From Botryllus schlosseri (taxonomy: Eukaryota), in NCBI GenBank assembly GCA_051294905.1, contig CM119371.1:16060001-16124000 (forward strand): a stretch of DNA of 64,000 nt, written 5' to 3'. Shown in pieces: positions 12,093-49,489 of this stretch (position 1 is its first letter; each line of letters starts with the position of its first letter). The position numbers were made by a program, and so were the translations under genes. Below the pieces are notes generated by a model. It was not told the DNA's origin, searched no databases, and was given only the letters and a program-made list of their open reading frames with translations.

Positions 12093-13395
12093 GATTGTCT
12101 GTATCGAAAATTATATTGCGTGTAAATTTATTGCAAGTTTGTAGTAGAATGACTGAAAAAACGGTCGTTTTTCCGACTCGGCTCCAAAAATACACACTTA
12201 CGCACACTTCACATACTTCATTGAATTTTCCGTTGGTTGACTAAAAAAAGGTCAACTTTCTGACTCAACTCCCGAAAGACCCGTCGGAGCGTTACTTGAG
12301 TATTAATTTACTGCATCTCAGTTGAATTATAACACACATTTAACCCAAATATTCTAAAAAGAGGACAAATTCTCAAAAAAGAGGACATTTGGGCGTACTC
12401 CGACGACACTTCTAAAAATGTCCAAAAAGAGGACAAATCCTTGTAAAAGAAGGCGTATGGTAACCCTAGGCAACACATCATCATGCCATAACGTACCTCG
12501 TCCGTCAACTAAATCTTTCAATATTGCTGTTGTCGAGATTTATTTGTAATTAATTTAATTGTAGTTAGTGCTTTACACGGGTTTCTCGAGATCAGTATTT
12601 CTTAACCTTGGCTCCAACGCGCCCCCAGTGGACTATTTGGATTTTGAAGATGGATAAAATACTCGGGGGCGATATTGAGGAAGTTCGGACGCTGAGGGCG
12701 CCGAATATAAATAGCGTACCCAGCAGTAGATGGTGTAGATCCCCGGTTCGCAAACGTTTTTCGACAAGCCTGATGATAGGGAAAAATTACGCGCCCCGTT
12801 ATCTACATATCAAATATAATAACAACATAGCAGCCAAAATGTTTGCAATCCTAACTCATAGTTTGAAGGCCTGGAAGGTTATCACTGTTAAGAGACCTCT
12901 CAAATATGAAATCCGGACTATGCACATAACAGTAAATATGAGCTGGAAGAAAATCGCGGGGAGCGCCAACAAAGATTCAGTTGGATATTTTGTCAGAAAT
13001 AACCATGTGCAATGCATATACAGACATATTTTAGCGATTTTTGTCTTTTCTGACTTGGGCATGTGTCAAAGTTACCTGACCAAGAGCTAAATCAAAAACC
13101 AATGGTGCCGGTCGTGCGCCAATCAAGCGTTGCACTTCTTAAGCGGACAAACAATCATTGTCTTCGGTTCGCAGGTATTCGGCAAGAGAAAAATCCGATT
13201 GATGACTTTTTTACTGCCACAAAATGAACTTCTTAAGAGTGGCATTCTACAACATGAGTCCTGATCGAGTATACTCAGAGTGGCTTCGATTTTAAATTCT
13301 CGCTTCTTAGATTCAAAAGGCATACTCTACAGGGCATATGACATGACTTTATGAGAAAATATCTTATTCCTCCTTAACTTTATCTCCTTCTATAC

Positions 13396-15723
13396 TAGGG
13401 TGGAGTGAAAATGACTTTTTTTTTCAAATCGAAAAAAGGGCTTCCTCAATCCTGACAAATGACCTAAAACTTCAATTAAAAGTGACTTCAGGGTATTGCC
13501 CCCATTTTCCTGCCGGCAACCCCCCAATTTCTGCGCGTGGAAGGGGGGGGGGGTAAAATGGCCCATCTCGGCAACCGCTGGTCGTAGAGTCATGATATAT
13601 AGCTTAAAATCTGCGGAAGCATCATGTTTCTATCTGTCTTAAGAAGAAAGTTTTCTCTATTGTGAACACAAAATGAGTTATAGCCAAAAAACAATATATA
13701 CGCACATTTTCGTTGAAATTCAGCATTTATTCTGACGAATTGTGATCTGTCATCAGTTTTTTTGAAAAGAAAAGTAACACACTGACAATACCGAATATTG
13801 GGCCCATAATACAAATATATTCGCAACACAGTCCTTTTAAAATCGGTTCAAAACATCATAATGAAACACTCACATTTAACGACTTATTGAAAATGCATTC
13901 TTGTGTAAAGTTTTTTCATCAGTTTACGAGACTTAATTTTTTGGCGAATGAGGCCGTCTCGTCTTTGAAATCCCGAAACTTGTGCTGATGCTTCTGTTAC
14001 GAGCTTTACATGTCGTTCCACTGTTTGATTGTGGCATGGATGAAACAAAATCAGAGGCTTCTCGCGGCATTCTTCCAGCTCTGCATCAGTTAAGTGCTCA
14101 ATCGCTGGAGGAAGTTGTTGATAAGGTTCAATATCAACCAACTCGTGGTATGCCTTTGCTTCCAAGTTCAACTTTGGGACACAGAATAAACGAATAGGAC
14201 CGCAGTTCAATTGGATGGAACTGCTATGACTCTCAATGTCCATAAGTGAATTTTGTTCAGCGGCATGTTTTCGAATCGCCAGCACCTTGGTCACACCCAA
14301 TTGGAAAAAAACTACGTGGAAGTGTATCATGTTGGCCAGTTACTCAATTCAAAAAGCTCTCGCCACCACTTATGGCCTTTCCAAAGCTCCCATCGGAAAT
14401 TGTGAATGACTTAAGTAAGGACCAGTTATATGCTTATAAATGTGCTGGGCAATTATTCAAGGAAATGCTGATGATGATCTGGCTTATTTGGAGGTTGGAC
14501 CAGTTGTGCATTCAAGATGGCTAACTTTAGGATGCAGTGCAGAGTTTTACGGTATTATGTAACAGTTGTTGAACCGACTTTGAACCTGGAGATTCTGGTT
14601 CGTTTTTGCCTTGAAGTATATTTTCCGACTTGGTTTGAGATCAAGCGAAACAAACATATAACACATGGATCCAGAAACTTCTTCAACTTGATTCAGCAGG
14701 TTATGAATTTCTCTGACCGAAACGTTCGAAAAACTGCTTTGAATGTGGGGATAAAAAACGGTTATTTCGCACATCCCGAAAATATTATGATTGCAATGCT
14801 GGCAGATGATAATGAAGACATACAAAATGAGGGTGTGACCAAGGTGCTTGTGTTTCGAAAACATGCCGCTGAATAAAATTCACTTGTGGACATTGAAAGT
14901 CATAGCAGTTCCAACCAATTGAACTGGGGCCCTATTCGCTTATTCTGTGTCCCAAAGTTGAACTTGGAAGCAAAGGCATACCACGAGTTGGTTGATATTG
15001 AATCTTATCAACAACTTCCTCCAGCGATTGAGCACTTACTGATGCAGAGTTGGAAGAATGCCGCGAGAAGCCTCTGATTTTGTTTCATCCATGCCACAAT
15101 CAAATAGGGAACGACATGTAAAGCTCGTAACAGAAGCATCAGCACAAGTTTCGGGATTTGAAAGACGAGATCGTCTCTCAATTGCCAAAAAATTAAGTCT
15201 CGTAAACTGATGAAAAGATTTGACACAAAAATGCATTTTCAATAAGCCGTTAAATGTGAGTGTTTCATTATGATGTTTTGAACCGATTTTAAAAGGACTG
15301 TGTTGTGAATATATTTTTATTATGGACCAATATTCGGTATTGTCAGTGTGTTACTTTTAGTTGCAAAAAAACTGATGACAGATCACAATTCGTCAGAATA
15401 AATGCTGAATTTCAACAAAAATGTGCGTATATATTGTTTTTTGGCTATAACTCATTTTGTGTTCACAATAGAGAAGACTTTCTTCATAAGACAGATAGAA
15501 ACATGATGCTTCCGCAGATTTTGAGCTATATATCATGACTCTACGACCAGCGGTTGCCGAGATGGGCCATTTTACCCCCCACGCGCAGAAATTGGGGGGT
15601 TGCCGGCAGGAAAATGGGGGCAATACCCTGAAGTCACTTTTAATTGAAGTTTTAGGTCATTTGTCAGGATTGAGGAAGCCCTTTTTTCGATTTGAAAAAA
15701 AAAGTCATTTTCACTCCACCCTA
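13396..15723. mobile_element. Palindromic hATm-like DNA transposon made of two 3' ends
   Basis: TAGGGTGG termini, 8-bp TSD TTCTATAC, and inverted arms of about 900 bp (13396-14298, 14831-15723) that both carry the transposase C-terminus (PCHNQTVERHVKLVTEAS). The spacer holds more upstream transposase sequence (GYFAHPENIMIAMLADD). Confidence 0.88.
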
Positions 15724-16084
15724 TTCTATACGCACTCTGCAAAATAGCCTGGCAGACAGACCATAAAAGCATCAGTTAACACCAACAGCATTCACCAGCT
15801 AATCCTAATTCTGAAATGATCGGTGCAAGTTCCGGTATCAGTCATACAATAGCAACTGTGCAATGTGTGCATGGATAGTACGAAGCTTCTATGACATTTT
15901 AAATGACATTATAATTATTGATTATCGCCGTAGTTGAAACGCCCCCCAGTTAGAGAACCACTGGTGAAGATTGTAGATTGACCATAACAATACCAATGTC
16001 CGACGTTCCTGTTGCTTAATACCTTGCCTTATAAATATGCCAAGGCAATTAAACTTCCGCATGTATTGAAATATCCCTTTACAC

Positions 16085-18530: not shown

Positions 18531-19984
18531 ACCGGAAGCAAATTAGCTGATAGTATGGGTGCCACGATCCGAGGACTTCAGATTCAAGCAGAGTCGCTGC
18601 AGCGGTTGAACAAACGGGCTCGTATAAAATAGTCTGCGCTTCAAGTCAAGCGCGTAGCAGGCGGCAACGTATTATCAGCAAGGAAAAAATGTAAAATTGA
18701 GTACGATGTAAAAATATAAAAAGATTGAAAAATAATTGATCGATCCCGGAATATTTACATCCCGCCGCCACCGAAGGCCGGGTTTTCGAAGGTCGCCGAC
18801 GGGTTGACAAATACCGGGTTAATGTCCTGCGAAATGAAAAGACCCAAGTCAAATAATGAAACGATGACTGTCCCATGCTCCAAAGTATATGATAACAACA
18901 TGCCGATCGTTCGGGATATCAGCCCCGCTTCGTACTTTACACAATACTCCACAGCACAACACCAAATCATAAAAAAACTGCAAGCCGTTTCTCAGGCATG
19001 CGGATTGTAGTAACATCACAAGACACCGGCTAATCAAAGCAACACCAAAACCAAGCCGTATCAAACGCGTTTCCTCGAATCGAACCAAGCCAGGGGTCCT
19101 CGATCAGAACGAACTTTGATTTGATACGAACTGAAAATAATTTTAGTTGTTTCTTTGCGATTCGGAATATAATTCAATTTTTGAGTTTTTGCGGATGCCA
19201 CGATCCTAATTCTAATCTAATTCGGAAAAGCGTTAAGGAAAGTTGGTACTGAAGTATAATACTCAATAGTCATCGTAGACCCCGTACTGAGGATCAAGAA
19301 CAGTGCATTTTGTTTTTGAAACATACCCGTAAATAGAGTTTCATACCGTGATGGTTGAGGAAAACATTTAGTATTTTCTATCTAGTTTTTTTCCTCCTTT
19401 GATGCAGATGCGTTCGGTAACGAAGTGCTCATATTGCCTAATTTCACTGAGTACTCGTGTGGTTATGCTTTAGACCAGTGATTCTCAACCGCGGCTCTCC
19501 GAGCCGCATGCGGCTCTCGACTGCTCTCCGTGCGGCTCTCACTAACGATGTGAAATCATTGATGCTTCTACGGAAATTCTAATTATTCATGATCATAAAT
19601 AAATCGCGCCTTCAACACAACAAATGTACGTTTATGTTCACGTTTACTGACGCGAAGGTCATTCCCTGATCACAATAGAATCCTACGTAATACAAGTTGT
19701 ACGGGTTGTGACGTAACATTACCGATAGTAATTTCGGTAGGCTTTAAATCCGAACCTTTACTGCTTTACTGAAGGCTCTGACCGTCTGACCTAAGCCTAA
19801 TCAGGTGTCTGTAATGAGACGGGCGAAGTTTATTTCGCTCGAGACGGCGGCTCATATTAGAATACGGGTGACAAGAGACTCGGTCAATAAGACAATCAAC
19901 GTTTGGGGTAACTGCAGGTACTTTATTTTCTTACTCTTTGCTTTGATCTTGATAGCGTTAGAAAATATCGGAGACTTTGGTTCA

Positions 19985-21757
19985 ATGATAATGTCAGGTT
20001 CAGATCAACCTGCAAAGAAATCTCGCACCCTTGTGCAAGAAAATCGGGCCTTTCAAAGTGAATGGGAAGAGGCGTATTTTCAAATTGAGGAAAACGGCAA
20101 AGCGAAATGCCTTCTGTGCCCTATAATAATAAACGGTGTAAAATCTTTCAACGTTAAGAGGCATTATAAAACACATGCGGGAAAATACGACGTCTATCAA
20201 GGTGAATCAAGGAAACGGAAGTTAGAATGTCTGAAAGCAGAGCGTAGCAAACAAGGAAAAATGTTTTTTAAAAAAAAAGAACCCGAAGAGGTAACAATAA
20301 CATCATATAAGATCAGTCATCTATTGGCCAGCAATATGAAGCCATATTCTGATGGCGAAATTACGAAGCAGGCTATTGTTTTGTTTACCGAAGACAATTG
20401 TTCTCCTGCCATTCAGCAGAAAGCTAAAAAATTGCAGCTTAGCAATGATACAGTAACGCGTCGTGTCGATTGCATATCCCAAGATCTGCATGAGCAACTT
20501 ATTCACAAGTCGCAAGATTTTTCTTACTACTCGCTTGCTCTTGACAGCACTAACGACATTACCGACATAGAGCAATTAGCTGTATTCATCCGGGGAGTCA
20601 TGCCAGATTTCAAGATTTGCGAGGAGTTTCTTACTTTGCGATCTATTCATGGCACAACGAAGGGAACCGACATGTTTCGTGAATTTCATGCTACTCTTCA
20701 AGAAGCGCATTTAGACCCATCGAAATTATATTCATTGGCGACAGATGGCTGCCCAGCAATGCTCGGCAAAAATCTAGGTCTTCAAGGACTCGTCAACAAA
20801 TGGCGTGCTGAACAGAATCTTGACGCTGTGACTTGGCAACACTGCATTATACACCAGGAAAGTCTTGTTGCTAAATCATTAAAGATGTCCAATGTGACAG
20901 ATATAGTAATATCGACCGTAAATTGGATTCGAGCAAACGCACTTAACCATCGAAAATTCAAGGCTTTTCTCACCGATATTGATGCTGACCATGGAGACTT
21001 GATCATGTTCACCGCTGTACGATGGCTAAGCCGAGCTGCATGCCTCAAAAGATTTTACGCGCTACTTCCTGAGATTAAAATATTTGTCGAAGGAAAGAAA
21101 GACATCCCTCAGTTGGGAAACGAACACTGGGTTGCTGACTTGGCGTTCATGGTGGATATTACCTCACACCTGTCGTCACTAAATCGGAACTTACAAGGAA
21201 ATAACAAGCTCTGTCACGCCTGGTACGGGACAGTGTCTGGTTTCATTGAGAAATTGTGTCTTTGGAGAAAGCACCTAGAGGAGGGTGTTACGACACATTT
21301 TGTAACGCTTTCAAACCACCGACAGAATGGATCATTCAAAACATATGACCAGGTTATTAGTACCTTGATTGACGGGTTTAAACGTCGAATAGAGGGAATG
21401 CATCATTCCGTACCCCTGATGAATATATTTTCAAACCCAATGGCAGTAGATGCCGCCACTGCCCCTGATATTTTTCAGATGGAACTGCTGGACTTGCAGT
21501 CCGATATAGAATTGCGACTGTTGTTTCAAAGCAATGGACTCCTTGAATTTTGGGGTGCTGTTCCTGAAGAAAAATACCCCAACCTGATAGCTAACGCATC
21601 GAAGAATGCCTGCATGTTCGGTTCAACCTATGTATGTGAAGCCCTTTTCAGCAAATTAGTGAGGATCAAAAGCAAATATCGCAACCGATTGACTGATCGT
21701 CATCTGAAACAGCTCTTGTGCACATGCAGCTTCCTCCACGATGAAACCTCGTTATGA
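19985..21757 (+). CDS. hAT transposase (GTF2IRD2/Buster-like); native C-terminus probably ends at 21800 via a frameshift
   Basis: BED-type CLLC..H..H, catalytic LALDST, ATDGCPAM and STYVCEALFS, plus CIIH and VRWLS motifs. First in-frame ATG at 19985. Confidence 0.93.
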   Translation: MIMSGSDQPAKKSRTLVQENRAFQSEWEEAYFQIEENGKAKCLLCPIIINGVKSFNVKRHYKTHAGKYDVYQGESRKRKLECLKAERSKQGKMFFKKKEPEEVTITSYKISHLLASNMKPYSDGEITKQAIVLFTEDNCSPAIQQKAKKLQLSNDTVTRRVDCISQDLHEQLIHKSQDFSYYSLALDSTNDITDIEQLAVFIRGVMPDFKICEEFLTLRSIHGTTKGTDMFREFHATLQEAHLDPSKLYSLATDGCPAMLGKNLGLQGLVNKWRAEQNLDAVTWQHCIIHQESLVAKSLKMSNVTDIVISTVNWIRANALNHRKFKAFLTDIDADHGDLIMFTAVRWLSRAACLKRFYALLPEIKIFVEGKKDIPQLGNEHWVADLAFMVDITSHLSSLNRNLQGNNKLCHAWYGTVSGFIEKLCLWRKHLEEGVTTHFVTLSNHRQNGSFKTYDQVISTLIDGFKRRIEGMHHSVPLMNIFSNPMAVDAATAPDIFQMELLDLQSDIELRLLFQSNGLLEFWGAVPEEKYPNLIANASKNACMFGSTYVCEALFSKLVRIKSKYRNRLTDRHLKQLLCTCSFLHDETSL

Positions 21758-33415: not shown

Positions 33416-35061
33416 GCCTAGAGAGTGTTGTTACTTCCCAGGGAATTATATTTTATATAATTGAACAGCATGAGGATTTACAATCGAACAGCAATACATT
33501 CATATTGACATGAACCCGAATAATTGCGGTTGACACTCGTCATGGGTAATCGTCAGCAACTTTGTAGAGAATCGGCAAGAACATTGTATAGTAACAATAC
33601 ACAAAATATGACGTCACCGGCATGAAATTTCGAGTTATTGAAGCGAAGAGAGCGCTCAAGATCCAGTAAACTGCTTGACACTTCAAGAGATGTTTCCAAG
33701 TTAGTGTTTGTGACGATATTGCTTCTGCGCACTCCTCTGTCGATCTGAATCGAAGTTTTCATGCCTGGTTTAGATTGTTTAGATTTCAGAGATTTAGCCT
33801 TCCAATATTAATATTTTTAGCGCTCAAACATTGAATATTCGTCGATTTTTTTTCTCGTACTCCATATCAGGGTTGTAATGACTCGAGTCATGACTCGACT
33901 AATTTTACCTCGCGACAGCACCAGTTCAAGCTTTTAATATGCATGTCAAATAAATTTCTTGCAAAGGAAAAATTTCTTCGCCCCTCGCGCGATTTCCTGT
34001 GGTAGATTTCTGGGCATCCGAGGTCACTGTGTCGGGTACATTAGGCAATAAGCGAGACATGCAGAAAAGTTGCTGCTACAATATGGCTGTATCATTCAAA
34101 TGTGTCGACCCATGTATTACACAGATCGGCTCGAATTCATGATAAGATTTGTCAGACATTGGTTTGTCTGGAAAACACTGTCGCATATCGCTGGGAGGCT
34201 TCAGTGTAGAGGTGTGAAACAATCGGTTACGGGACTATATGACACAGGCATTTCTCGGCCTACCCTTATACACCGGAACACATGAAAACATGAAGTTTTC
34301 GCCATCACATTACTGACCAAAATGCGATGTCAACAAGATGTGCGGAGAAGAAACCAAAATGACCGTAACTGGTTGGCGGAACCTTGGATATTGATATACC
34401 CGGTTGTTGAAATGGTCGGCACCGGCACAGTTGTGTCCTTGCAATCTGAGTATAGACAGTAGTACAAAGCAGTACAAATGCAACCCGCAAGAGAAAAATA
34501 ATGCACACCAATTTGAAATAGTGCGCGACAGAAATGTTTTATGGAGCTGCGTTGCGTTCAACGATGCCAAAATAATAATACCAGTTGCAATCTAAATACG
34601 TCGGTATCATAGATAATTTGCAGCTTGAATTCAGCATCCCGCAAGTCATTGCGCCTCATACTTGATTATTCCGTGGCGACATTTGTGACCTGCATTTGTT
34701 CAGTAGCGCAGCTAGAAGGCTCGGTGGCTCGATTTTAGCTGGCGTGACTCATCTGAATACGACATCGTGCTCAAATTAAACCCAAAATATGATAAGAATC
34801 GACGGCATCGTGCGTGGCATCTGTCAAAACTTTAAACGTGAGATCACATAAATGCGCGGATCTTTCGTGCAACAGACAAGATAGTAAAGGCATAGGCAAG
34901 ACGATATAAAATACGCACCGATGTCGTTGAAGAGATCTAATGGCACGACATCCGATTTCATCTGAGTTAATAAAATTGATAAATGACATCAGAAATTTCA
35001 GAGGCAGCTTAAAACGCGACGCATTTTCAATCTAGTTGTATTCGAACTCAGGAGCACAAAC

Positions 35062-35283
35062 ATGGTGAATATACTTCTCGCCTTCGCAACTATAATCACC
35101 GAGCTGCTATTTTTCGTAGATGATGCGGGTGCAAGTGAGTCATAAATCTTTTTCAAGTCATGCTACAGATAACGAAATATATTGATGATTTTAGTTCCAT
35201 GCACCGCTACCGCTGACTGCCCTCCTGGCTTCGGTACCCCTTATTGCGTTTACGGACAGTGCTATTATTATGGCATTGGGTGA
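35062..35283 (+). CDS. Small secreted cysteine-rich peptide precursor, 2 exons (35062-35134, 35195-35283), 53 aa
   Basis: Exon 1 is hydrophobic (MVNILLAFATIITELLFFVDDAGA) and is followed by donor GTGAGT, a 60-nt intron ending TTTTAG, and exon 2 IPCTATADCPPGFGTPYCVYGQCYYYGIG-stop. The stop overlaps another GTGAGT, so a third exon is possible. Confidence 0.65.
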
Positions 35284-37518
35284 GTATAAGCGTATACATT
35301 TATTCCAAGTTCCTGAATTTGTTGCTTGAGATATGTTAACATGAAATATGTGAACATGTTGGTGGATCTAGCTAAACTTTGTCAATCAAAAAGGCACCAT
35401 TCGTTTAGTGACTGGTGAGTGATCATCGACTATGGCAGATGCGTTATCGACAGGACAACGCTCACACTTGTGGGCACTTCGCATACCTCAATACACTTCA
35501 TAAATACGGTACGGCGTGACAATAAAGATATGCATAAATCCAGTCGAGGCGACTCTAAGCCGTTTAAGGTGACTTCTGAATATCGAGGAAAGACTTGATG
35601 CAGACTAGCATCGAACGCATGGACGTGATGGCCGGAATCAGTCTTGCTTTCTGCTGGTGATCGAAAACATGCCCATGCCCAGCCCATACAATGTTAATAA
35701 CACCAAAATAATGCCTTGTAGCCAAGCCAAATTCAGAATGAGTTCAATTTTACTCCGTGTATCATAAGTTTTTTTTTATAAGTATACCATTAGAATTAGA
35801 TGTTAATTATACAATCCGGTATTGTAAACGCATTATCTAAAGATATTACCAAATTCGTAAGAGACATCCGATAAAACTTCGTGCCTCGCGAGAAAAATTG
35901 ATAAGAACTGCCACGCCGTTATAGTCACGCATTGCATTGAATGTATATGCGCGAGTTATCAAATTGATTCACATACAATTGAGGTATAAATTCACAATTA
36001 TGTCTGGTTCCATGTCACGTGTTACGTCATAGCCATGTCCGTCTGAAACAGGTACAGGCAGCGGATACGCAACGCAACCTTCTGGAGTCAGATTACGCAT
36101 CAAAAAGTCAATAACACGATATAAACATTAGCTCTGCATTATAATATTGATGTAGGAACGAGCTCTATCACATAAAGGCATATATCTTCCGTTGCACAAA
36201 TGATATGCATTCATAGTGTCATTAAATAGCAATCGCTAATCTGCGTATATCAATGCTCAGGCAATCGATACGGTATCTGAAGAAGTCTATGCGCAATGTG
36301 CATTGCATATGCTTTAAATTGCATCATTTTATGTAGTTGAGAATTTTAATGTGGCTCCATCGTACTTTCTGGATTGAAATGCAGCTCCGACATCAAAAAA
36401 GGTTGGGAACCACTGATATAAACCCCAACTATAGTGACTTTCACTGGAGTCGGGGATCGTTGTCACCATGCTTTTCAATGAATACAGCAGTGTCAGAGAT
36501 GTAACGTTACATGGACCCATGTTTTTGCCTTCAATGGCAAAAGTTGAGCCTACTATTCGATATCTGCATGAAGCAACAAAGATTTTATGTTGATACGTAT
36601 TTTTCTCTTTCAAGCAGGTAGAAAGAAGATATGAAACGGGAATAATGTATGAAGTATTTGGAAATGTGTTCGATTTCTAACATTCAATATTTCAAATAAA
36701 TCATATCGCAAAAGAGATGGGATATTAATTGCATTCCAGGCTAGCACTGTTATGTAAAACGTTTTTGCCGTTTGATGTTAATCAGGTTCTATAAAAGGCA
36801 GTGATAGTATTTATCAGATCCGATATCAAAGTTTTGTTTAACGGTAGATGATGACTGATGCAACAAAGGACAGGATTACGTTAAAAATGGTATATAAATC
36901 GTCTGTTTTTGATGGTAACGTCAATACCAGCGTCACCGTAGATTTGAATATAAAAAATGCTCCGAGGAGCACTGCGCTGAAAAAGTGATGACGTCTCGAA
37001 TGCGGTAAACGTAGCTGTAAGCTGCGTTGTATAAATAATTTTGTCCCCGGTACACTCAACATACCGTGCATAATGAACAGAGAATTGGAGTACCAAAAAT
37101 GATCAACATTTAACCGACTGCATCAAGAGGCGTTATTGAACGTAGTATTTCTAAGTTTTCGAACATGATCTGCCTCCTTGTACAACTTACTACCTGCTCA
37201 ACCGTTATTATCTTTGAATAGTTCTACAGTTTATTGAGCCAAGACAAGGTCTGAAATTCTATCTTCATTACTCACTTGGAAACCCCTGCTTCAACTTGTT
37301 CAAGAGTAGCAATTTACGTCATTCACTTGATGACTATTCTTGCCATCACGCGATCCAGGAGCCCCTCACCGAACCATGAGAGATTCCTCAATACTTCTCA
37401 GAAACATGTCTGTGATAAATGAGAAGACCGTGCGCAGGTTTTGAAATACACATATTCTGGAGCACTGACAAGGAACTTGGCCCTCCCCTGACCGAGTGGT
37501 CCGTGCTTTTGTCATAAG

Positions 37519-39887
37519 TAGGCTTACCATATTTTTGTGACTTCAAAGCGGGACGCCTCCAAAGACCAAGACCCCTTAGCTGTAATTTGTCAACTTTACA
37601 TTTTCCGATATTATTACACAGGCCTATATTTGTCATCGAGAGTTCATGCGCATATTCTCTATCTAAATATCGGTTTCAGTTCGAGAAATAGAAAGGAATT
37701 GACGTTAACGATACAAAATTTACTTATTCGCCCAATCATACTTTTCTGTAGATAACACCTTCTTCAAAAAGACATTGTTCAATTTTACATTCTCGTAAAA
37801 GTCAGAGCAGGACCAATCATTATTGATTTTACATGTGATAACGGCTTTCACGTTCTGCTCCAGCATCCTGCTTCTGCTCTCGGACCACATGCTCTTCATG
37901 ACAGTGTTGGGATGACTCGAGTCATGACTTGACTCGAGTCAGACTCGAGTCAACTTTTTCGTATGACTTGACTTGACTCGAGTCACTTTGCTAAAATGAC
38001 TTGACTTGACTTGACTCGGCGCATCAGAAATGTGGATTGACTCGTGACTCGAAGCAAAATTCACGAGTCAATTTCAAGTCATCAGGTATAATCTGTTTCG
38101 ATAAAAATCACTGTATCTTGCATTTATTCGGATTGTTCGAGAAACGCGGGTGTATCCCGTGAGAGTGAACAATCATTCAATGATTGTGCGTCTTACTGAG
38201 CCTCCATTGTTCACTCACAAATATATCGACCGCAAGCGAAGTGATCGAAGCTTACAGCTTACGTTGTCGTAGACTAGTATAGTAAAGTAATTTTATAACA
38301 AAATGTGTATTTCTGTTCTCCGTTCTTGCCTTAACCAAACTTCTTGTTTTATTGAAATTGAATTCGAATATAGTTTATATGGTCCTAAACCGTTGGCACA
38401 GGCTCAAATTGTATCATATCAATTTGTAAATGGGTAATGTATTGCATCTAAACAATTCGATTGACATGGTCTATTTTGGCTGGTGACTATATAAACTGAA
38501 GCTATGCAATTATACTTACGTAGCTTAGCAGTTCTAATCATATGTGAGCGATACAGCGGCTTCTTGCGTGTATATTTAACTCTATATTCGTTCATCGGTT
38601 CAAAATCAATGACCACTCAATCTGTATTTCAGACAGCTAGCAAAATGCCATGACGTAGCATACCTGATACTTCGAAAAGGCAACTTGACTTGAAATGTGA
38701 CTTGACTCGTGACTTGACTTGACTTGACTCGACTTGACTCGAGTCACCTCTAAAAATCAAGTGACTTGACTTGACTCGAGTCACCTTCGAAAATCGATTG
38801 ACTTGACTTGACTCGAGTCAAAATGTGCAATGACTCGAAATGACTCGTGACTCGAAGGTAGTGACTTGATCCCAACACTGCTTCATGATGGAAAATATTC
38901 TTTCAATGGGTGCGGATGTTCCGGGTAAACAAAATATGAACTCTACCAGCTTTTGAAAGTTTGAAACGTGTATGCCTTTTTTCACATTCTTTGAACATCT
39001 CGACCCATTTTCGTTCCAAAGACGCATTTTGCCATCTCTCTCCCTTACAACGTACAGACACGTGCCTTTTCACGAGTACTTGTTCGTCGAAAAGAGAGTC
39101 GCTGTTGATCACATGCTTCCCAAACATTATGTTGATCTTTTCCGCAGACTCACACACTCGCACCCAGGATATTTCTTTGTTTAGGTCGATCCAAAGACGA
39201 GGAAGCACATCTTTATAAGAACCCTCATAAAGATCCAGATACGATAAGCATTTGTCGTAAAATTCTCTTGATTCTTTGTAAAACAAGTTTACGTTTACTT
39301 CGCCTGCTTCTTGTAGCTTGCCCAAGAGAGTCAATGCTGCAGATGGGATGAAGTTGTTTTCTTTCTTTTCAAGTAGGTTTAGCTTTAGCTCTGACAGAAC
39401 ATGTGCCACATCTACGGCACTAGCGTTTTCCTTTTCTAACTTTAGAATAGTCTCGTTGAAGTATTTCAACTGCCCATGAACAAATTTCAAATAGAGCCCT
39501 TGTGTTGGTTCTTCGAAGCATTTTTTTGATGAGAGTAGGACAAACTTCTTGGGAGTTGAAGTAACTTTTCAATCCCTCAAACATTTCAAGTATTCTTTGC
39601 AAAGCTGGTAGCAAAGAGAGAAATCTTGTATTGCCATGTTGCAAGATACCCTGATACTCAATTTCTACAAAGTCGCAAAATATTTTCAGCTCAGTAACTC
39701 GAACGGTGTAAATGTGAAAAAATTTATATATTTTCCCAACAAGAAGAAATTTGGAAAATTTTGTTAGTTCAGCAGTCCTACTTTACGGCCTTAAAAAGCG
39801 GGACGTTTGGCTGACTGGTCGGGACGCCGGGACAAGACGTTAAAAAGCGGGACTATCCCGCCTAAAACGGGACGTATGGTAAGCCTA
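37519..39887 (-). mobile_element. Blackjack-like hAT relic with fragmented transposase, interrupted by a MITE
   Basis: TIRs TAGGCTTACCATA / TATGGTAAGCCTA. Minus-strand fragments GNTRFLSLLPALQRILE and FCLPGTSAPIERIFSIMK|SMWSESRSRM (hAT dimerisation region) are split by 37902-38880. TSD degraded. Confidence 0.8.
37902..38880. mobile_element. hAT-type MITE with GACTCGAGTC/GACTT subterminal arrays
   Basis: TIR CAGTGTTGGGAT and perfect TSD CTTCATGA. Confidence 0.92.
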
Positions 39888-42161: not shown

Positions 42162-43600
42162 CTATATAATGTCGCAATGATTACGAAATTGGTCGACAAA
42201 TTTCAAAACAGAATTTGCACCACAAGCTTTGATGATTGATGTAGGCCAATGTTAGGTTGCTGAATCCGATCATGTGCTCGGAATTGCTCTATCTCGTCAG
42301 ATGTTGTTGCTGTAATTTTTGCTCAATTTCTTGAATTGATGAAATCTCGACTTTGGTAACATTACGGTGAGCCTATAACAGCAAAAGTTCTACTAGTGTT
42401 CCTGAAATCATCTGTGATGAAACCTGGGCCGGGCTGTTTGTAGAACAGAACGACCGAGTTTTCGGTGAGCTTTAATCCGGTGGTTTTCAAATTTCTTTGA
42501 ATCAGGACCTCTTTTCGTCTTTCGAAAATATATGTGGACGCAATCATCTTTTAGTTAGAGCATTTTTCACCCTTATACATCGTTCTAGTTTAAAAGATTG
42601 TGTTTAATAACTCCATATTTAACTTAGTTCCCTCCGTTATCGTTAAATATAATCGGTCAATGCATTTTGCGACAGCACACTGCTCCTTCGTAAAACGTAG
42701 TAGTTTGTAAACAATAAACATGCGATATTGTTCGTATGTAACGTAATGTAGAAGAAAATTATACACTTTGCCACATTACCAGAATAAGTGATCTGTGGTG
42801 GCTTTTGGGGTGGGCGATGTGGGCGGACGCTCGCCCCCCCTGGTCGAAGCCCCCCTCTCTTTGGTTAATGCGATTTTTTCAAGGATTATGGCAAATAAAC
42901 GGGGAAATCCTTGTACCAATCAAGAATATGATTCCGTACAGATGTGTCAATCATCATCAAATCTCTGCATTTGTTAGAAAAGTCCTATATCCCGATAATC
43001 ATCACGCCTCTGCATGCGTTAGAATTACTTAGTTTTGATGTAGTCTATCCTTGCACACATGCAATAGATATGCAATAGATATGGCCGAATCCAGTACCCG
43101 GCTAAAACCCTTGACGTGGTGAAAGATTGATAGTAATAATATACGCAAAAGGGGGGTCTGGGGGTGGAGCTCCCATATGTTACGATTACATACTTATAGG
43201 CCCCCCCCCGGTAAGTCTCGCCCAGCCCCCCAGCCCCCATTCGCTGGGCCATCACTGTGTGACACATACCTTTACAAGCCCGACTCGAAGTGTATTCTCC
43301 GCAGACCACATGCTTGTCTGTCCTCAAAACAATACGGAACCCATCGCTATGCGCAATCAAGCATATCATAACACCACATCTCCCTTTTTAAGTGGAAGAG
43401 ACATCGACACTACTTACATTATATACAAGGGATAATACAGCAGCGATAACAATATATACAAGGTGACACTACCCCTGCAAGGTTAGCAAGAGCAGGGCAT
43501 TTAAACTTAACAGACATAGCCACCAGGGAGGTAGACTACTCCCAAGGTGTACAACAGGTTAGGGGATTATTCTGCCCCTTATCTTGAAACCTGTGTATGA

Positions 43601-46600
43601 TCAATATTGCTTTATAAATCGTTGAGGCGGATTTCTAATTCTCGAGGATCGTCTCACGGGATTCTCTCCGGTAGGTTCAGTTGAACCGTTGGCTTCTTGG
43701 TGGTGTCCTGGTTTCTTTGACGCTACAAGACAATATTCAACCGGTTTATTCTGACGCGGAACAGATGGTTTTGGTTCCTCCGGAGGGTTGTACTTCCGTA
43801 AGTGTTTTCGGTTTCGCCTCATTAGTCCATTGTTCGTTTCAACGATTATAGCTCTAGGATTTTCATGCATCTCCTTGATGATACCCATCCTCTCGCAATC
43901 AGGAATGTATACATGATCTCCAATTCAGAATCTATCATTCTCAACCACACGATGTCTTTTATTGTAACTCGCAGCCATTTTCTGTCTATACTCCGTCTCC
44001 CTTTTTCGAAGATCGTCGGCATCAACAGTCTGTGGTCATAGCTGATCAGGATGACAAATCACCTTTGTCTTCAATCTGCGCCCCATGCTCAATTGGGCGG
44101 GCGAGAACCCGCTGTGTAATGGCGTGTTCCTGTAGTTCAGTAGCGTCAGATAGAGATCATCTGTTTTCTTGAGCAGGCCCTAATAGTTTGCACTCTTCTA
44201 TCGATGAAACCATTGCCCTGGCTATATTTCGGAGAAGAGGTGAGGTGCTGAAAATTCCAGGCTCTGGAGAACTGGGAAAATTCAGAGGAAACGAAGACTG
44301 AAGCATGGTCAGTAAGTAAAACATCACAGATACCATGATGAGAGAACACATTCTTGAAGTTCAAAATTGTGTCCCGCGACGAGATCGTTTTCTTCACTGA
44401 GAACAGTTCTATGTCTCTGGAGTAGTAATCCATGATCAGAAGGCAGTACTTGTCCTCCAGTTGAAAAAAATCAGCAGCAATTCTACTCCATGGGCGTCTC
44501 GGAAATTCGGTCCCCATCATTGGTTTAGTTCGATCTCGTCGATGCTTTTCGCAGCGGTTGCAGTTGAGTACTGCATGTTCAATGTCTTTTGAATAACCCG
44601 GCCACCAGCAAGCTTGAGCTGCAAGTTGTCTGGTCTTGGTTATTCCAAGGTGCGATTGGTGAAGATGCTTCAGAACATCTTCGCGCAACGACGGTGGTAT
44701 GACGAGTCTGTTGCTTTTTAGCAAGAGATTGCAGTGTTGGGATCAAGTCACTACCTTCGAGTCACGAGTCATTTCGAGTCAGTGCACATTTCGACTCGAG
44801 TCAAGTCAAGTCAATCGATTTTCGAAGGTGACTCGAGTCAAGTCAAGTCAGTCGATTTTTGGAGGTGACTCGAGTCAAGTCGAGTCAAGTCAAGTCAAGT
44901 CACGAGTCAAGTCAAAATTCAAGTCAAGTTGCCTTTTAGAAATATGAAGCATGATTACGTCATTGCATTTCACTAGGTCTCTGAATAACAGATTGATTGG
45001 TCATTGATTCTGAACCGATGAACGAATATAGAGTTGAATATACATGCAATAAAGGGCTGTATCGCTCACATAAACATAGAACTATTGAACTACGTAAGTA
45101 ATTGCATAGCCTCATTTTATAGTTACCAGCCAAGATAGAGAATCGAGAAACGAATTGAGAAGATGCAATACATTACCCATTTATACATATTGATATGATA
45201 CAATTCAAGTCTGCGCCGATGGTTAAGGAGTATATAAACTATATTCGATTACAATTTCCATAAAACAAGAGGTTCGGTTAAGGTAAGAACAGAGAACACA
45301 TATATATATTTTGCTATGAAATTACTTTACTTCTAGTTTACGACAACGTAAGCTGTAGCTTCGATCACTTCGTTTGTGGTCAATATCTTTGTGGGAGAAT
45401 ATTGGGGGATCAGTGAAACGCACGATCATTTAATGATCGGTCGCTCTCATGGGTTACACAAAAGTTTGGCGAACAAGATGCAAGATGCAAGATAAGGTGA
45501 TTTTTACTTGATGACTTGAAATTGACTCGTGCATTTTGCTCCGAGTCACGAGTCAATCCACATTTCTGATACGCCGAGTCAAGTCAAGTCAAGTCATTTT
45601 AGCAAAGTGACTCGAGTCAAGTCAAGTCATACGAAAAAGGTGACTCGAGTCTGACTCGAGTCAAGTCATGACTCGAGTCATCCCAACACTGAGAGATTGT
45701 CATGTACTGTTAACACGTCTCTGAGATTCCATAAGATACGTAACGGTCCATTTAAAGTTTCTCTGTTCTTTGGCCATCCTCCGACAACATATGTCATAAC
45801 AGTAGACAGTGTATTGTCTTCTTTCAGAGCGTTCTTTATTTCTTCCAGGCGTCGGTCAGTAGCAGACAGCCCGCTTACCAGAGCACGCACACATGCTTCC
45901 GCTTCCTTGTGAAGATCAGAGTCTTCGATGCCATCCGTTATAGGTAAAGGGCATCGTGATAGCGCGTCTGCTGTGTACATCGACTTTCCAGGCGTGTGAA
46001 AAATTTCAAAGCTATAGGACATCAACCTGATTTTAAATCTTTGAATTCTGACAGGTAGTTCGTCAAGCGATTTCGTTGACAGCAGAGGCACTAGTGGTTT
46101 GTGGTCGGTTTCAACTTTCAGGTCTGCAATACCCAGTAGCAGTTCTCTCCAGTGCTCCATTGCCCAAGTGATTGCCAAAGCCTCCTTTTCTATCTGGGCA
46201 TACCGTTGTTCAGTATCGCTCATTGATCTACTGGCATATGCGACTGGGCAAAGGTTATTGTCATCTTGTCTTTGCATCAGAACGGCACCAAGGCCGTAAC
46301 TGCTGGAGTCAGCCGAGAGCACAGTTTCCCTGTCTGGGCAATACATGGCTAACGTAACATCGGTAGACAGATCGCGTTTCACTCTTGCAAACGATTCCTC
46401 TTGTGACGGGCCCCAGTACCACTCAACCTTCTTTGCCAACAAGTCTCTTAACGGCTTAGTCAGTTCCGTTAGGTTAGGGCTAAACTTCATGAGCTGGTTT
46501 GTCATTCCCAGGAACCTGCGAAGTTCAGTCTTGTCAGTAGGAGCAGTAATTCACAATAGCCTGCACCTTCTTGGGATCTTTGCTGATACCAGCTTGGCCA

Positions 46601-47805
46601 ATGACCTGACGGAGATGTTCAAGTTCAGTTGCAGCAAAGATGCATTTCTTCCCATTTAGAGTCATGCCAGAGCATTTAAGACGGTCCAATACAGCCTTCA
46701 GTGTCTCATCGTGCGTAGTTTGAGTACCAACTACTAGGATATCATCCATATGGCAAATCACGTTTGGAATTCCCTGCAGGATTTCACTGATACGTTTTTG
46801 AAACGCTTCGGGTGCGCTCGAGATGCCAAATGGTAAGCGACGAAATTGGTATCTCCCAAACGGTGTGATAAACGTTGTCAACTCCCGACTTTCAGGGGCG
46901 AGCTCAATATGATGAAAGCCAGAATTTGCGTCCAGCTTAGTGAAGACCGTCCCCTTTGACAGTTGCCCCAAAGTACTTTCGACTGTAGGCATAGGGTACA
47001 GCTCCCTTTTTACCCCATTATTGAGCTTGGTTAGGTCCACACACAGTCGTACCGTTCCGTCTGGTTTTGCTACTGCAACGATTGGAGCACACCAATCTGT
47101 AGGTCCCGTAACTTTTTCTATGATATCGAGTTCCTCAAGCTTTTCTATCTCCTCTTTGAGTTTCTGGCGCATTGGGATTGGCACACGACGTGGCGAATTC
47201 AAACAGAAGGGCTCAACGCCGTCTTTCATGTGAATAGTAAACGGTTCTCCCAGTTTGCCAGTGCCCTTGAATAGCTCTGGGTATGTTTTCTTGACGTCAT
47301 CTTTGCTCCGCAACCGACACTCAGGAGTAAGTTTGACTGCCCTGATGGATACTTGAACGTCCGGGCACTCTTGAAGGAGTCCAAGTTCCAGTATAACAGG
47401 AGCGCCAATGAGTAGCTTATCTGCATCTGACACAATGTAGACTTTCTCTGTTAACGTCTTGAAGTCGGAGCGGAGTTTCATCCGTACATAACCAACAGCA
47501 TTGAGAGGTTGTCGATTAACTCCAATGAGCCGTCTATCAGATTTCTGTATAGGCCCATATTGTCTCTTGTACAAACGCCGCGGCATGACGGACACTTCTG
47601 CTTCAGAGTCAATAATCCATTTTAGAGTGTTGTTAACGACTCTCAACATGATAGTCCACTGGATAGTCTTAGTAGCCTGTGCTGAAACTACCGATGCTTC
47701 TGCTTCTTGGGTTTCGCCCACACTTCCACACATTGCGTCTGGAAGTTCTTCCTCGTCATAACACCCAGCGGTTGGTTCTTCCTCAACCGTTTCGCTATCC
47801 AGCAC
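43601..47805 (-). pseudogene. pol: Gypsy pol (protease, RT, RNase H, integrase), fragmented
   Basis: WIIDSEAEVS (protease), LDANSGF..LPFGISSAPE..HMDD (RT), ADSSSYGLGAVL..YAQIEKE..TDHKPL (RNase H), HLGITKT..C..C..ADFF..TDH (integrase). Frameshifts and a MITE insertion are present. Confidence 0.92.
44732..45691. mobile_element. Second, inverted copy of the GACTCGAGTC MITE, inserted in Gypsy pol
   Basis: Same TIR and perfect TSD AGAGATTG; it splits pol at HDNL|LLKSNRLVIP. Confidence 0.92.
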
Positions 47806-47910
47806 GCGTACATTTCTACTTCTGCACCTTTCCTTATAATGGGCCGTTTTACCACATCTGTAGCATTTTACCGAGGCTGCTGGACAGAACCCTTTGCCTC
47901 TTTTGTGCCG

Positions 47911-48612
47911 TCAGCCGCAAAATGTGCAGTTTATTATAGGCACAGTTTCAACTGCAGGCTTCTTAGAGGTTTGAGGTCTCGCTTGGTTCACCACCGCTTC
48001 TATTGCTGTAGGTGCAGATCTCCGATCAGCATAGCTCCGTCTCGCCTCGTGGGCAGTCACAACGTCGATAATCTTCTGAGACGTTAGCTTGTCAAAGTCG
48101 ATTTCCGATAGCTTGTACAACATCTCAGAATCATCTACGCACCCGACTATAAGTTTACCCCGAACGGTTGCGTCATACACTGCTGGAGGAAATTGGCATT
48201 TTCGTGCAGCCTTTCTGACTGCATGTACCCAAGATGCAAATGATTCACCCTCCTTGCGTTGTAAGAAATGGAAAAATTGAAGGTGTGCTTCTAACCTGCC
48301 ATCCCGAACCTTGAAACGTTCATCAAACTTCTTCATGACGGTATCAAGGTCAGTTTTGTCTTCTGCTGCAACTGCTCTCACACCGTCTGATGCTGCGACT
48401 GCTTTAGCAAACACGAATTCCTCGTATAAATCCTTTCCTTCATTGCCTATATGATTCAGTAATAATCCAACTTTCTGGCGCTCAGATGATTCAGCATGAC
48501 CTGCTGCATCGATAAAGATCAGGAATTTCTTTTTCCATTCCAGCTAGGCTTCTGCCTCATTCACGGCGCCTATTAATGTGAGATCCCCCGGACCTAATAC
48601 AATGGCCGCCAT
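47911..48612 (-). pseudogene. gag: Gypsy gag with a premature stop
   Basis: ATG at 48612 reads MAAIVLGPGDL..EA*LEWKKKF..QRKEGESFASWV..ARKCQF and ends in a CxxC knuckle disrupted by a stop. Confidence 0.8.
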
Positions 48613-49489
48613 AATTTAGTTATTATACTAGTTCGAAGTTATCCGCTGCCACCATGTAGTATTATCACTGAGCTTCTAGATGTCTACTTAGACAGATACC
48701 TTTACAAGCCCGACTCGAAGTGTATTCTCCGCAGACCACATGCTTGTCTGTCCTCAAAACAATACGGAACCCATCGCTATGCGCAATCAAGCATATCATA
48801 ACACCACAGTAGGTAGCTTTATAGAGCTATCATTACTGGGAATAATGTGTAGACATGAAAATCATGAAATCTTTATTGAGACGGGAGACCAAGAACCCTG
48901 TATTTTTCGCTAGAGCCTAATATACGCATTGGTCTATTTTTATTTATGTTGTTAATTGATCTCGAGGACTTGTGTTTGTGTTGCTACATACTAAATCGCC
49001 AGATGTGTCTTCTCGGCTAACGCAAAATGACCATGATGACAGTGTCCTGTTCCCACTAGTAGAATCGTTAAAAAGTGAATTCAGTTGCCGTGATTCAAGG
49101 GTATTTAACTCATGCGTGTGCTGCGTCTTATCCTTGAACGACTCTCTACCTTTCAAAATTCAAATTGCCGAAGAAATTAGTTTGTCAACCGTCAATTGGA
49201 CCCCCGGTTGAATACCAATGACCTAGAGCTACGATTTTTGTCTTTGAAACTGACTCAAGCTAGTAAGTAATTTCGAAAAGCAGTCGTGAATACACCGTCG
49301 TGGGCACTGCACAGTCCAATATTGGAAGGGGGCAAAATCGGAGGGCGTATAGAGTGTTGCTCCCTCCCACAGGACATTAATTTTTATATAATTAAACAGC
49401 ATGATGATTTACTATTGAATAGTAATACATTCATATCGACATGAACCCGAATAATTGCGGCTAAGAGAATTGGCAGGAACATTGTATAG

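Follow-up and report, generated by a model that had tools for sequence, protein, structure and literature searches.

Families of secreted cysteine-rich peptides are a known kind of gene product, and those of defence and venom peptides combine a conserved signal and set of cysteines with a variable remainder. Among the described systems, the squash-type knottins EETI-II and MCoTI and the engineered Min-23, which share a two-disulfide cystine-stabilised beta-sheet (CSB) core, are close to the one reported here. Stolidobranch ascidians possess the secreted defence precursors of styelins, clavanins and botryllin, of which clavanins and styelins are amidated, and the ascidian Synoicum turgens the small, amidated, cysteine-rich St-CRP-1/2 and turgencins, the St-CRPs being neutral (PMC13208793). 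In this work, we describe a real spliced gene for a tiny secreted four-cysteine peptide, belonging to a multigene family, in 64,000 nucleotides of Botryllus schlosseri DNA (assembly GCA_051294905.1, contig CM119371.1, positions 16,060,001 to 16,124,000 of the forward strand), hereafter called the window.

Reads from four of 24 listed sequencing runs (X1, X2, X5 and X9) were mapped onto positions 34151-36340, within a region (34151-36344) that is unique when compared with the repeats inside the window. The mapped reads numbered 7,550 in X9 (of 9.98 million read) and 344 in X5 (of 12.9 million). X2, whose record gives no library kind, was taken as DNA and covers 30 of 30 bins, while X1 is RNA by guess only. 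Statements on read ends that depart from the window (loose ends) refer to the best 22 of 333 rows, and those on sequence differences to the best 40 of 327. The libraries are unstranded, and the plus strand of the gene comes from its splice signals and 5' ends. The gene is made up as follows:

35062..35134, plus strand: coding part of exon 1, 73 nt from the ATG at 35062, with a 24-residue signal-like peptide ending Ala-Gly-Ala and common to the family
35135..35194, plus strand: intron 1, 60 nt, GT..AG, phase 1, with an RNA joint in X1, X5 and X9
35195..35279, plus strand: exon 2, mature peptide with C-X5-C-X8-C-X4-C spacing and an aromatic tail
35280..36614, plus strand: intron 2, 1,335 nt, GT..AG, with loose ends behind 35279 that match 36615 onward
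36615..36700, plus strand: exon 3, which completes a Gly codon and adds Arg and a stop (36619-36621), followed by 3' untranslated region (UTR) with AATAAA at 36695-36700; its position lies beyond the mapped range (to 36340)

The start codon at 35062, the short phase-1 intron and the second exon with its cysteine spacing had been proposed from the letters alone, and all are present in the sequence. RNA now bears out the joint 35134/35195, which is crossed in X5 by 22+13 = 35 reads with 28 starts (of 344 mapped) and in X9 by 108+88 = 196 reads with 120 starts (of 7,550 mapped), as well as by one X1 contig. The joint was not found in X2, though that run covers all bins. RNA cover is deepest in exon 1, and its ATG is the only one between 34993 and 35064. 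The spacing of the cysteines is by itself not beyond chance: of 100 shuffled versions of the window, 27 contain a loosened form of the pattern one or more times. It is the RNA evidence, not the motif, that shows the gene to be real and supports an expressed four-cysteine peptide gene with a signal-like first exon.

The 3' end, on the other hand, had been misdrawn. The original prediction had two exons and a stop at 35281-35283, but the RNA downstream of 35279 shows a second intron and a third exon. In X9, depth falls from 89/79 to 0/0 in the adjacent bin past 35279, and 27 X5 reads continue behind this position with letters unlike the window; among the X9 loose ends listed, none lies there. 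Of the 30 loose letters, the first 28 have a single match in the window, at 36615, with three mismatches (0 of 100 shuffles gave such a match), and over the full 30 letters 26 agree, with four mismatches counted by eye. A pyrimidine tract and an AG precede this match. The end of the RNA at about 35279, together with loose ends matching 36615, indicates that 35280-36614 is a second intron, inside which the formerly proposed stop falls. The reading frame is 165 nt long and encodes a 54-residue precursor ending Gly-Arg-stop, so the Gly once proposed as available for amidation is retained.

Two side observations concern this part of the gene. A small pile of RNA at 35538-35683, inside intron 2, is present in both X5 and X9, at a depth of 2-5 and in reads that carry 3-5 further differences; it sits just behind an AATAAA at 35521 and may represent a repeat or another transcript. 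Twelve letters of the 3' UTR (36698-36709) are, by eye, identical to the start of a paralogue 5' UTR in an X1 loose end, probably by chance.

Most of the expressed sequence is not that of the window itself. Six differences from the window are listed for the exon-2 reads of X5 and X9, and one X2 contig that extends into intron 2 has them too; two are silent and four change the peptide (Thr-Ser, Val-Phe, Tyr-Asn, Tyr-Phe), none of them at a cysteine. In exon 1, the Glu of the window at codon 14 is replaced by Gly in 91 of 93 and 87 of 88 X5 reads, and in 2,915 of 2,930 and 2,820 of 2,845 X9 reads (5,735 of 5,775 in total), and some reads begin with Met-Lys instead. Such X5 and X9 reads have their source in an allele that has diverged or in a close duplicate. 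In one spliced X1 contig, by contrast, just 4 of 157 letters depart from the window, and the window letter at 35102 is apparently kept. These reads show that this exon structure, or a copy very close to it, is transcribed; given the near-identity of the X1 contig beside the divergent X5 and X9 reads, expression of the exact window allele is likely, short of proof. The same differences might mean that the window holds a weak or decaying allele or duplicate and that X5 and X9 sampled a sister copy, the family being real in either case and the functional readings below unaffected. The Glu at codon 14, the reads opening with Met-Lys and the six differences in nearly all exon-2 reads of both runs speak for such decay, but in the window the frame, splice sites, four cysteines, stop and AATAAA are all intact, and the X1 contig (RNA by guess, as said) is nearly identical to it. 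We regard decay as unlikely.

The reads further revealed that exon 1 precedes more than one kind of mature exon. Among the X5 and X9 reads mapped, 98 in 100 continue unlike the window. At the end of exon 1, 196 X9 reads are spliced to the exon 2 described here, versus 2,860 and 608 that pass into other sequence, and in X5 the corresponding numbers are 35 versus 28 and 32 (all among the rows listed). One of these loose ends, translated by eye, reads T-P-C-T-T-V-S-D-C-P, with a consensus agreement of 0.84 in X5 and 0.92 in X9, and two others read E-C-I-D-D-D-D-C-P and Y-K-C-T-T-N-D-D-C-P (agreement 0.69 and 0.62), the loose ends other than the first being mixtures (0.59-0.69). All keep a Cys, then five residues ending in Asp, then Cys and Pro, and vary in the remainder. 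Moreover, one X1 contig matches exon 2 exactly over 35230-35271 and then turns into a different tail absent from the window, with Gly-Arg and further residues. The divergent loose ends and this alternative tail show that a common signal exon precedes several different mature peptides, the gene being one member of a multigene family. Position 35102 is covered by 12 X2 contigs, a number that is not interpretable as copy number. Expression of the family, by the mapped counts given above, is high in one run, X9. Separately, 256 X9 reads leave exon 1 early, at 35123, into purine-rich sequence (agreement 0.43); they may belong to the family and encode a charged propeptide, or stem from other genes whose signal is similar.

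Some transcripts are also trans-spliced to a spliced leader which, like the multigene family, had no place in the original prediction. The 5' features are:

34905..34910, plus strand: TATA-like box (motif), a probable upstream promoter, with a putative short outron
34991..34992, plus strand: AG acceptor for spliced-leader trans-splicing, the trans-spliced form starting at 34993
35038..35040, plus strand: second 5' end without leader, a probable proximal transcription start, with loose ends in 40 and 51 X5 reads and 1,477 X9 reads

In 724 X9 reads, the letters preceding 34991 form a loose 5' end that agrees with the spliced leader 'Chordata 1', whose listed rows include Botryllus, Halocynthia, Boltenia, Herdmania and Polyandrocarpa (PMC3795323). 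The leader assigns the organism to the stolidobranch ascidians. Upstream of the acceptor, X9 depth is about 1x in the bin 34881-34953, and 17 X9 reads lie at 34959. As far as listed, the X9 reads at 35009 all differ from the window, and the leader-carrying reads may derive from an allele or paralogue. The loose ends before 35038/35040 are presumably template-switch oligo adaptor; the automated rule for start pile-ups listed none at 35038-35040. The two kinds of 5' end would be accounted for by two promoters or by two sets of paralogues. In the same upstream region, X2 depth reaches 14,552 at 34370-34515, about 400 nt upstream of the TATA-like box, marking a genome-wide repeat, though one that is unique within the window.

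From the sequence, we infer a 24-residue signal cleaved after Ala-Gly-Ala. Hydropathy, in 11-residue windows, is 1.9-2.5 across residues 1-19. A Glu within the hydrophobic core had formerly raised doubt, which is lessened by the Gly at this place in nearly all X5 and X9 reads; the window itself keeps the Glu. The mature peptide of 28 residues contains four Cys, five Tyr and one Asp, with no Lys, Arg or His. A Gly followed by a basic residue is the standard amidation signal, and trimming of Arg is a known step of peptide processing; the end of the precursor, Gly-Arg-stop, agrees with what is expected of an amidated secreted precursor (C-terminal Gly with or without a basic residue) and fits amidation once the Arg is trimmed. 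AlphaFold, run on the single sequence, returned two models with mean pLDDT of 82.4 and 87.2; both have a three-residue turn and a C-terminal hairpin, and neither has a helix of four or more residues. The fold matches listed are nearly all small disulfide-rich proteins, but weak, tied and of low Z.

Based on these data, the job of the peptide is most likely innate defence, exerted through binding to target proteins of microbes, foulers or parasites, to which we give a probability of roughly 45%. On this reading, the ascidian gene would yield the 54-residue precursor of one secreted peptide among many, whose signal would be removed at Ala-Gly-Ala; the cysteines would pair 1-3 and 2-4 in a small turn-plus-hairpin core like the CSB of knottins; and, after loss of the Arg and conversion of the Gly to an amide, a neutral product of about 3 kDa would remain, its variable loop and aromatic tail setting target specificity, for instance for enzyme inhibition. 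Binding of protein targets would be well served by a rigid core that carries a variable loop and an aromatic tail, whereas membrane lysis in the manner of botryllin is unlikely because the peptide has no positive charge. Neutrality is nevertheless compatible with an antimicrobial role, since the neutral, amidated, cysteine-rich St-CRPs of ascidians have modest antibacterial activity (PMC13208793).

The lack of cationic charge, the small rigid core, a Gly-Arg end that seems typical of amidated hormones and the high variation between individuals or copies would also suit a family of signalling or recognition ligands that act on the animal's own receptors as paracrine, neural, gamete or self/non-self cues. 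Hormones, however, less typically have many divergent paralogues or, as in one run here, a very high transcript level, and Pfam and database searches found no receptor or known neuropeptide match, which makes this alternative rather improbable. The fold matches, with scorpion short toxins and spider knottins among the top rows, and the conserved signal with a variable mature part, as in venom families, might instead point to an anti-predator or antifouling family directed at ion channels or receptors of other animals. Plant defensins and protease inhibitors score equally with these toxin rows, at low Z, a common fold does not demonstrate function, and the peptide has no long helix, third disulfide or basic residue; we consider such a role quite unlikely. 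Modification of the tyrosines had been suggested in the original prediction, and five Tyr in 28 residues, together with the DOPA of ascidian tunic proteins and styelins (PMC10817596, PMC10608444), might indicate a DOPA-bearing peptide for cross-linking or metal binding in tunic or blood cells. In the variant that X5 and X9 express, two Tyr are exchanged (for Asn and Phe) and a Phe is gained, so that what is preserved is aromatic bulk, not the hydroxyl. Tyr modification is hardly the point of the peptide, and this last role appears very improbable.

A bolder and doubtful reading would be that stolidobranch ascidians, in the sister group of vertebrates, hold an undescribed repertoire of two-disulfide mini-proteins (natural Min-23 scaffolds), like that of the nodule-specific cysteine-rich (NCR) peptides or the conotoxins, behind one conserved signal exon, very highly made by one cell type and serving as a variable recognition or effector library for the control of symbionts, foulers or neighbouring colonies. 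With the conserved signal exon as a handle, the whole family could be collected from RNA and single-cell data that already exist; it would offer a very small, stable scaffold in natural variants, and the peptides are short enough for synthesis, which makes their function directly testable.

The surroundings of the gene are rich in repeats (about 41% G+C, with 36% of the window inside repeats found within it), and the open reading frames scanned elsewhere are transposon parts. A 655-codon, apparently uninterrupted frame at 19790-21757 (plus strand) encodes a hAT-family transposase (Dimer_Tnp_hAT, E 3.6e-09) with a weak Spin-doc zinc finger. At 43261-48808 (minus strand) lies a long terminal repeat (LTR) retrotransposon with reverse transcriptase, RNase H and integrase in separate frames and 118-nt direct repeats of 99% identity; its pol is split by an element of about 960 nt (44731-45691), of which a reversed copy is found at 37902-38881. 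Additionally, a palindromic element of about 2.3 kb (13391-15728), with arms 93-99% complementary and a 532-nt centre, has a 151-codon frame (13884-14339) with no Pfam family.

Regarding the known systems, NCR peptides resemble the family in their signal, short variable mature peptide, many paralogues and similar cysteine spacing, but they are legume root-nodule genes, whereas here we have an animal whose transcripts bear an ascidian spliced leader. A likeness to them had been noted, but a relationship is not supported: the sole Pfam row for exon 2, Nodulin_late (PF07127), scores 13.0-14.6 bits versus a cut-off of 30.4 (E 0.04-0.13); exon 1 alone has no Pfam family in single-exon scans. The definition of NCR peptides, a signal and a mature part of 30-50 residues in which four or six cysteines are conserved (PMC7354933), is too general to place a signal-like exon and 28 residues with four. 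NCR044 is cationic and largely disordered, with disulfides 1-4 and 2-3 (PMC7354933), and the likeness is likely convergence.

Among animal peptides, big defensins are reported absent from tunicates (PMC7203481). [quoted passage not shown] The peptide described here has four cysteines; its models show a three-residue helical turn, and its fold rows are weak and tied. St-CRPs (CC-C-C-CC) and turgencins (PMC7024374) have six cysteines in another spacing, as do the rusticalin repeats, which lie within a larger protein (PMC6339383). Botryllin has a 158-residue precursor and a mature charge of +11.2 (PMC9966394), and peptides of the styelin, clavanin and botryllin type are linear, cationic or His-rich, and helical, in contrast to the hairpin model without Lys, Arg or His obtained here. 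Ascidian defence peptides in the surveyed literature are either linear helices or six-cysteine peptides, and a highly expressed four-cysteine family would fill a gap in ascidian secretions. No homologue was found in the protein databases searched, using weak single-exon queries, and no description of the family in the literature, where subscription papers and most supplements fell outside the search; the family is apparently undescribed.

The knottins may come near in their CSB core, which consists of a short strand, a 3-10 turn and a hairpin held by two disulfides. Natural members have a third disulfide, as in the three-disulfide knottins of PMC2659701, and membership of the inhibitor cystine knot class needs three that form a knot; squash inhibitors also have an N-terminal inhibitory loop. 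The peptide described here has four cysteines, an aromatic tail and a Gly-Arg end, and single-exon queries gave no significant sequence match. Each named family considered thus differs from it in at least one defining feature, and in its working it resembles the general class of secreted, diversified cysteine-rich peptides.
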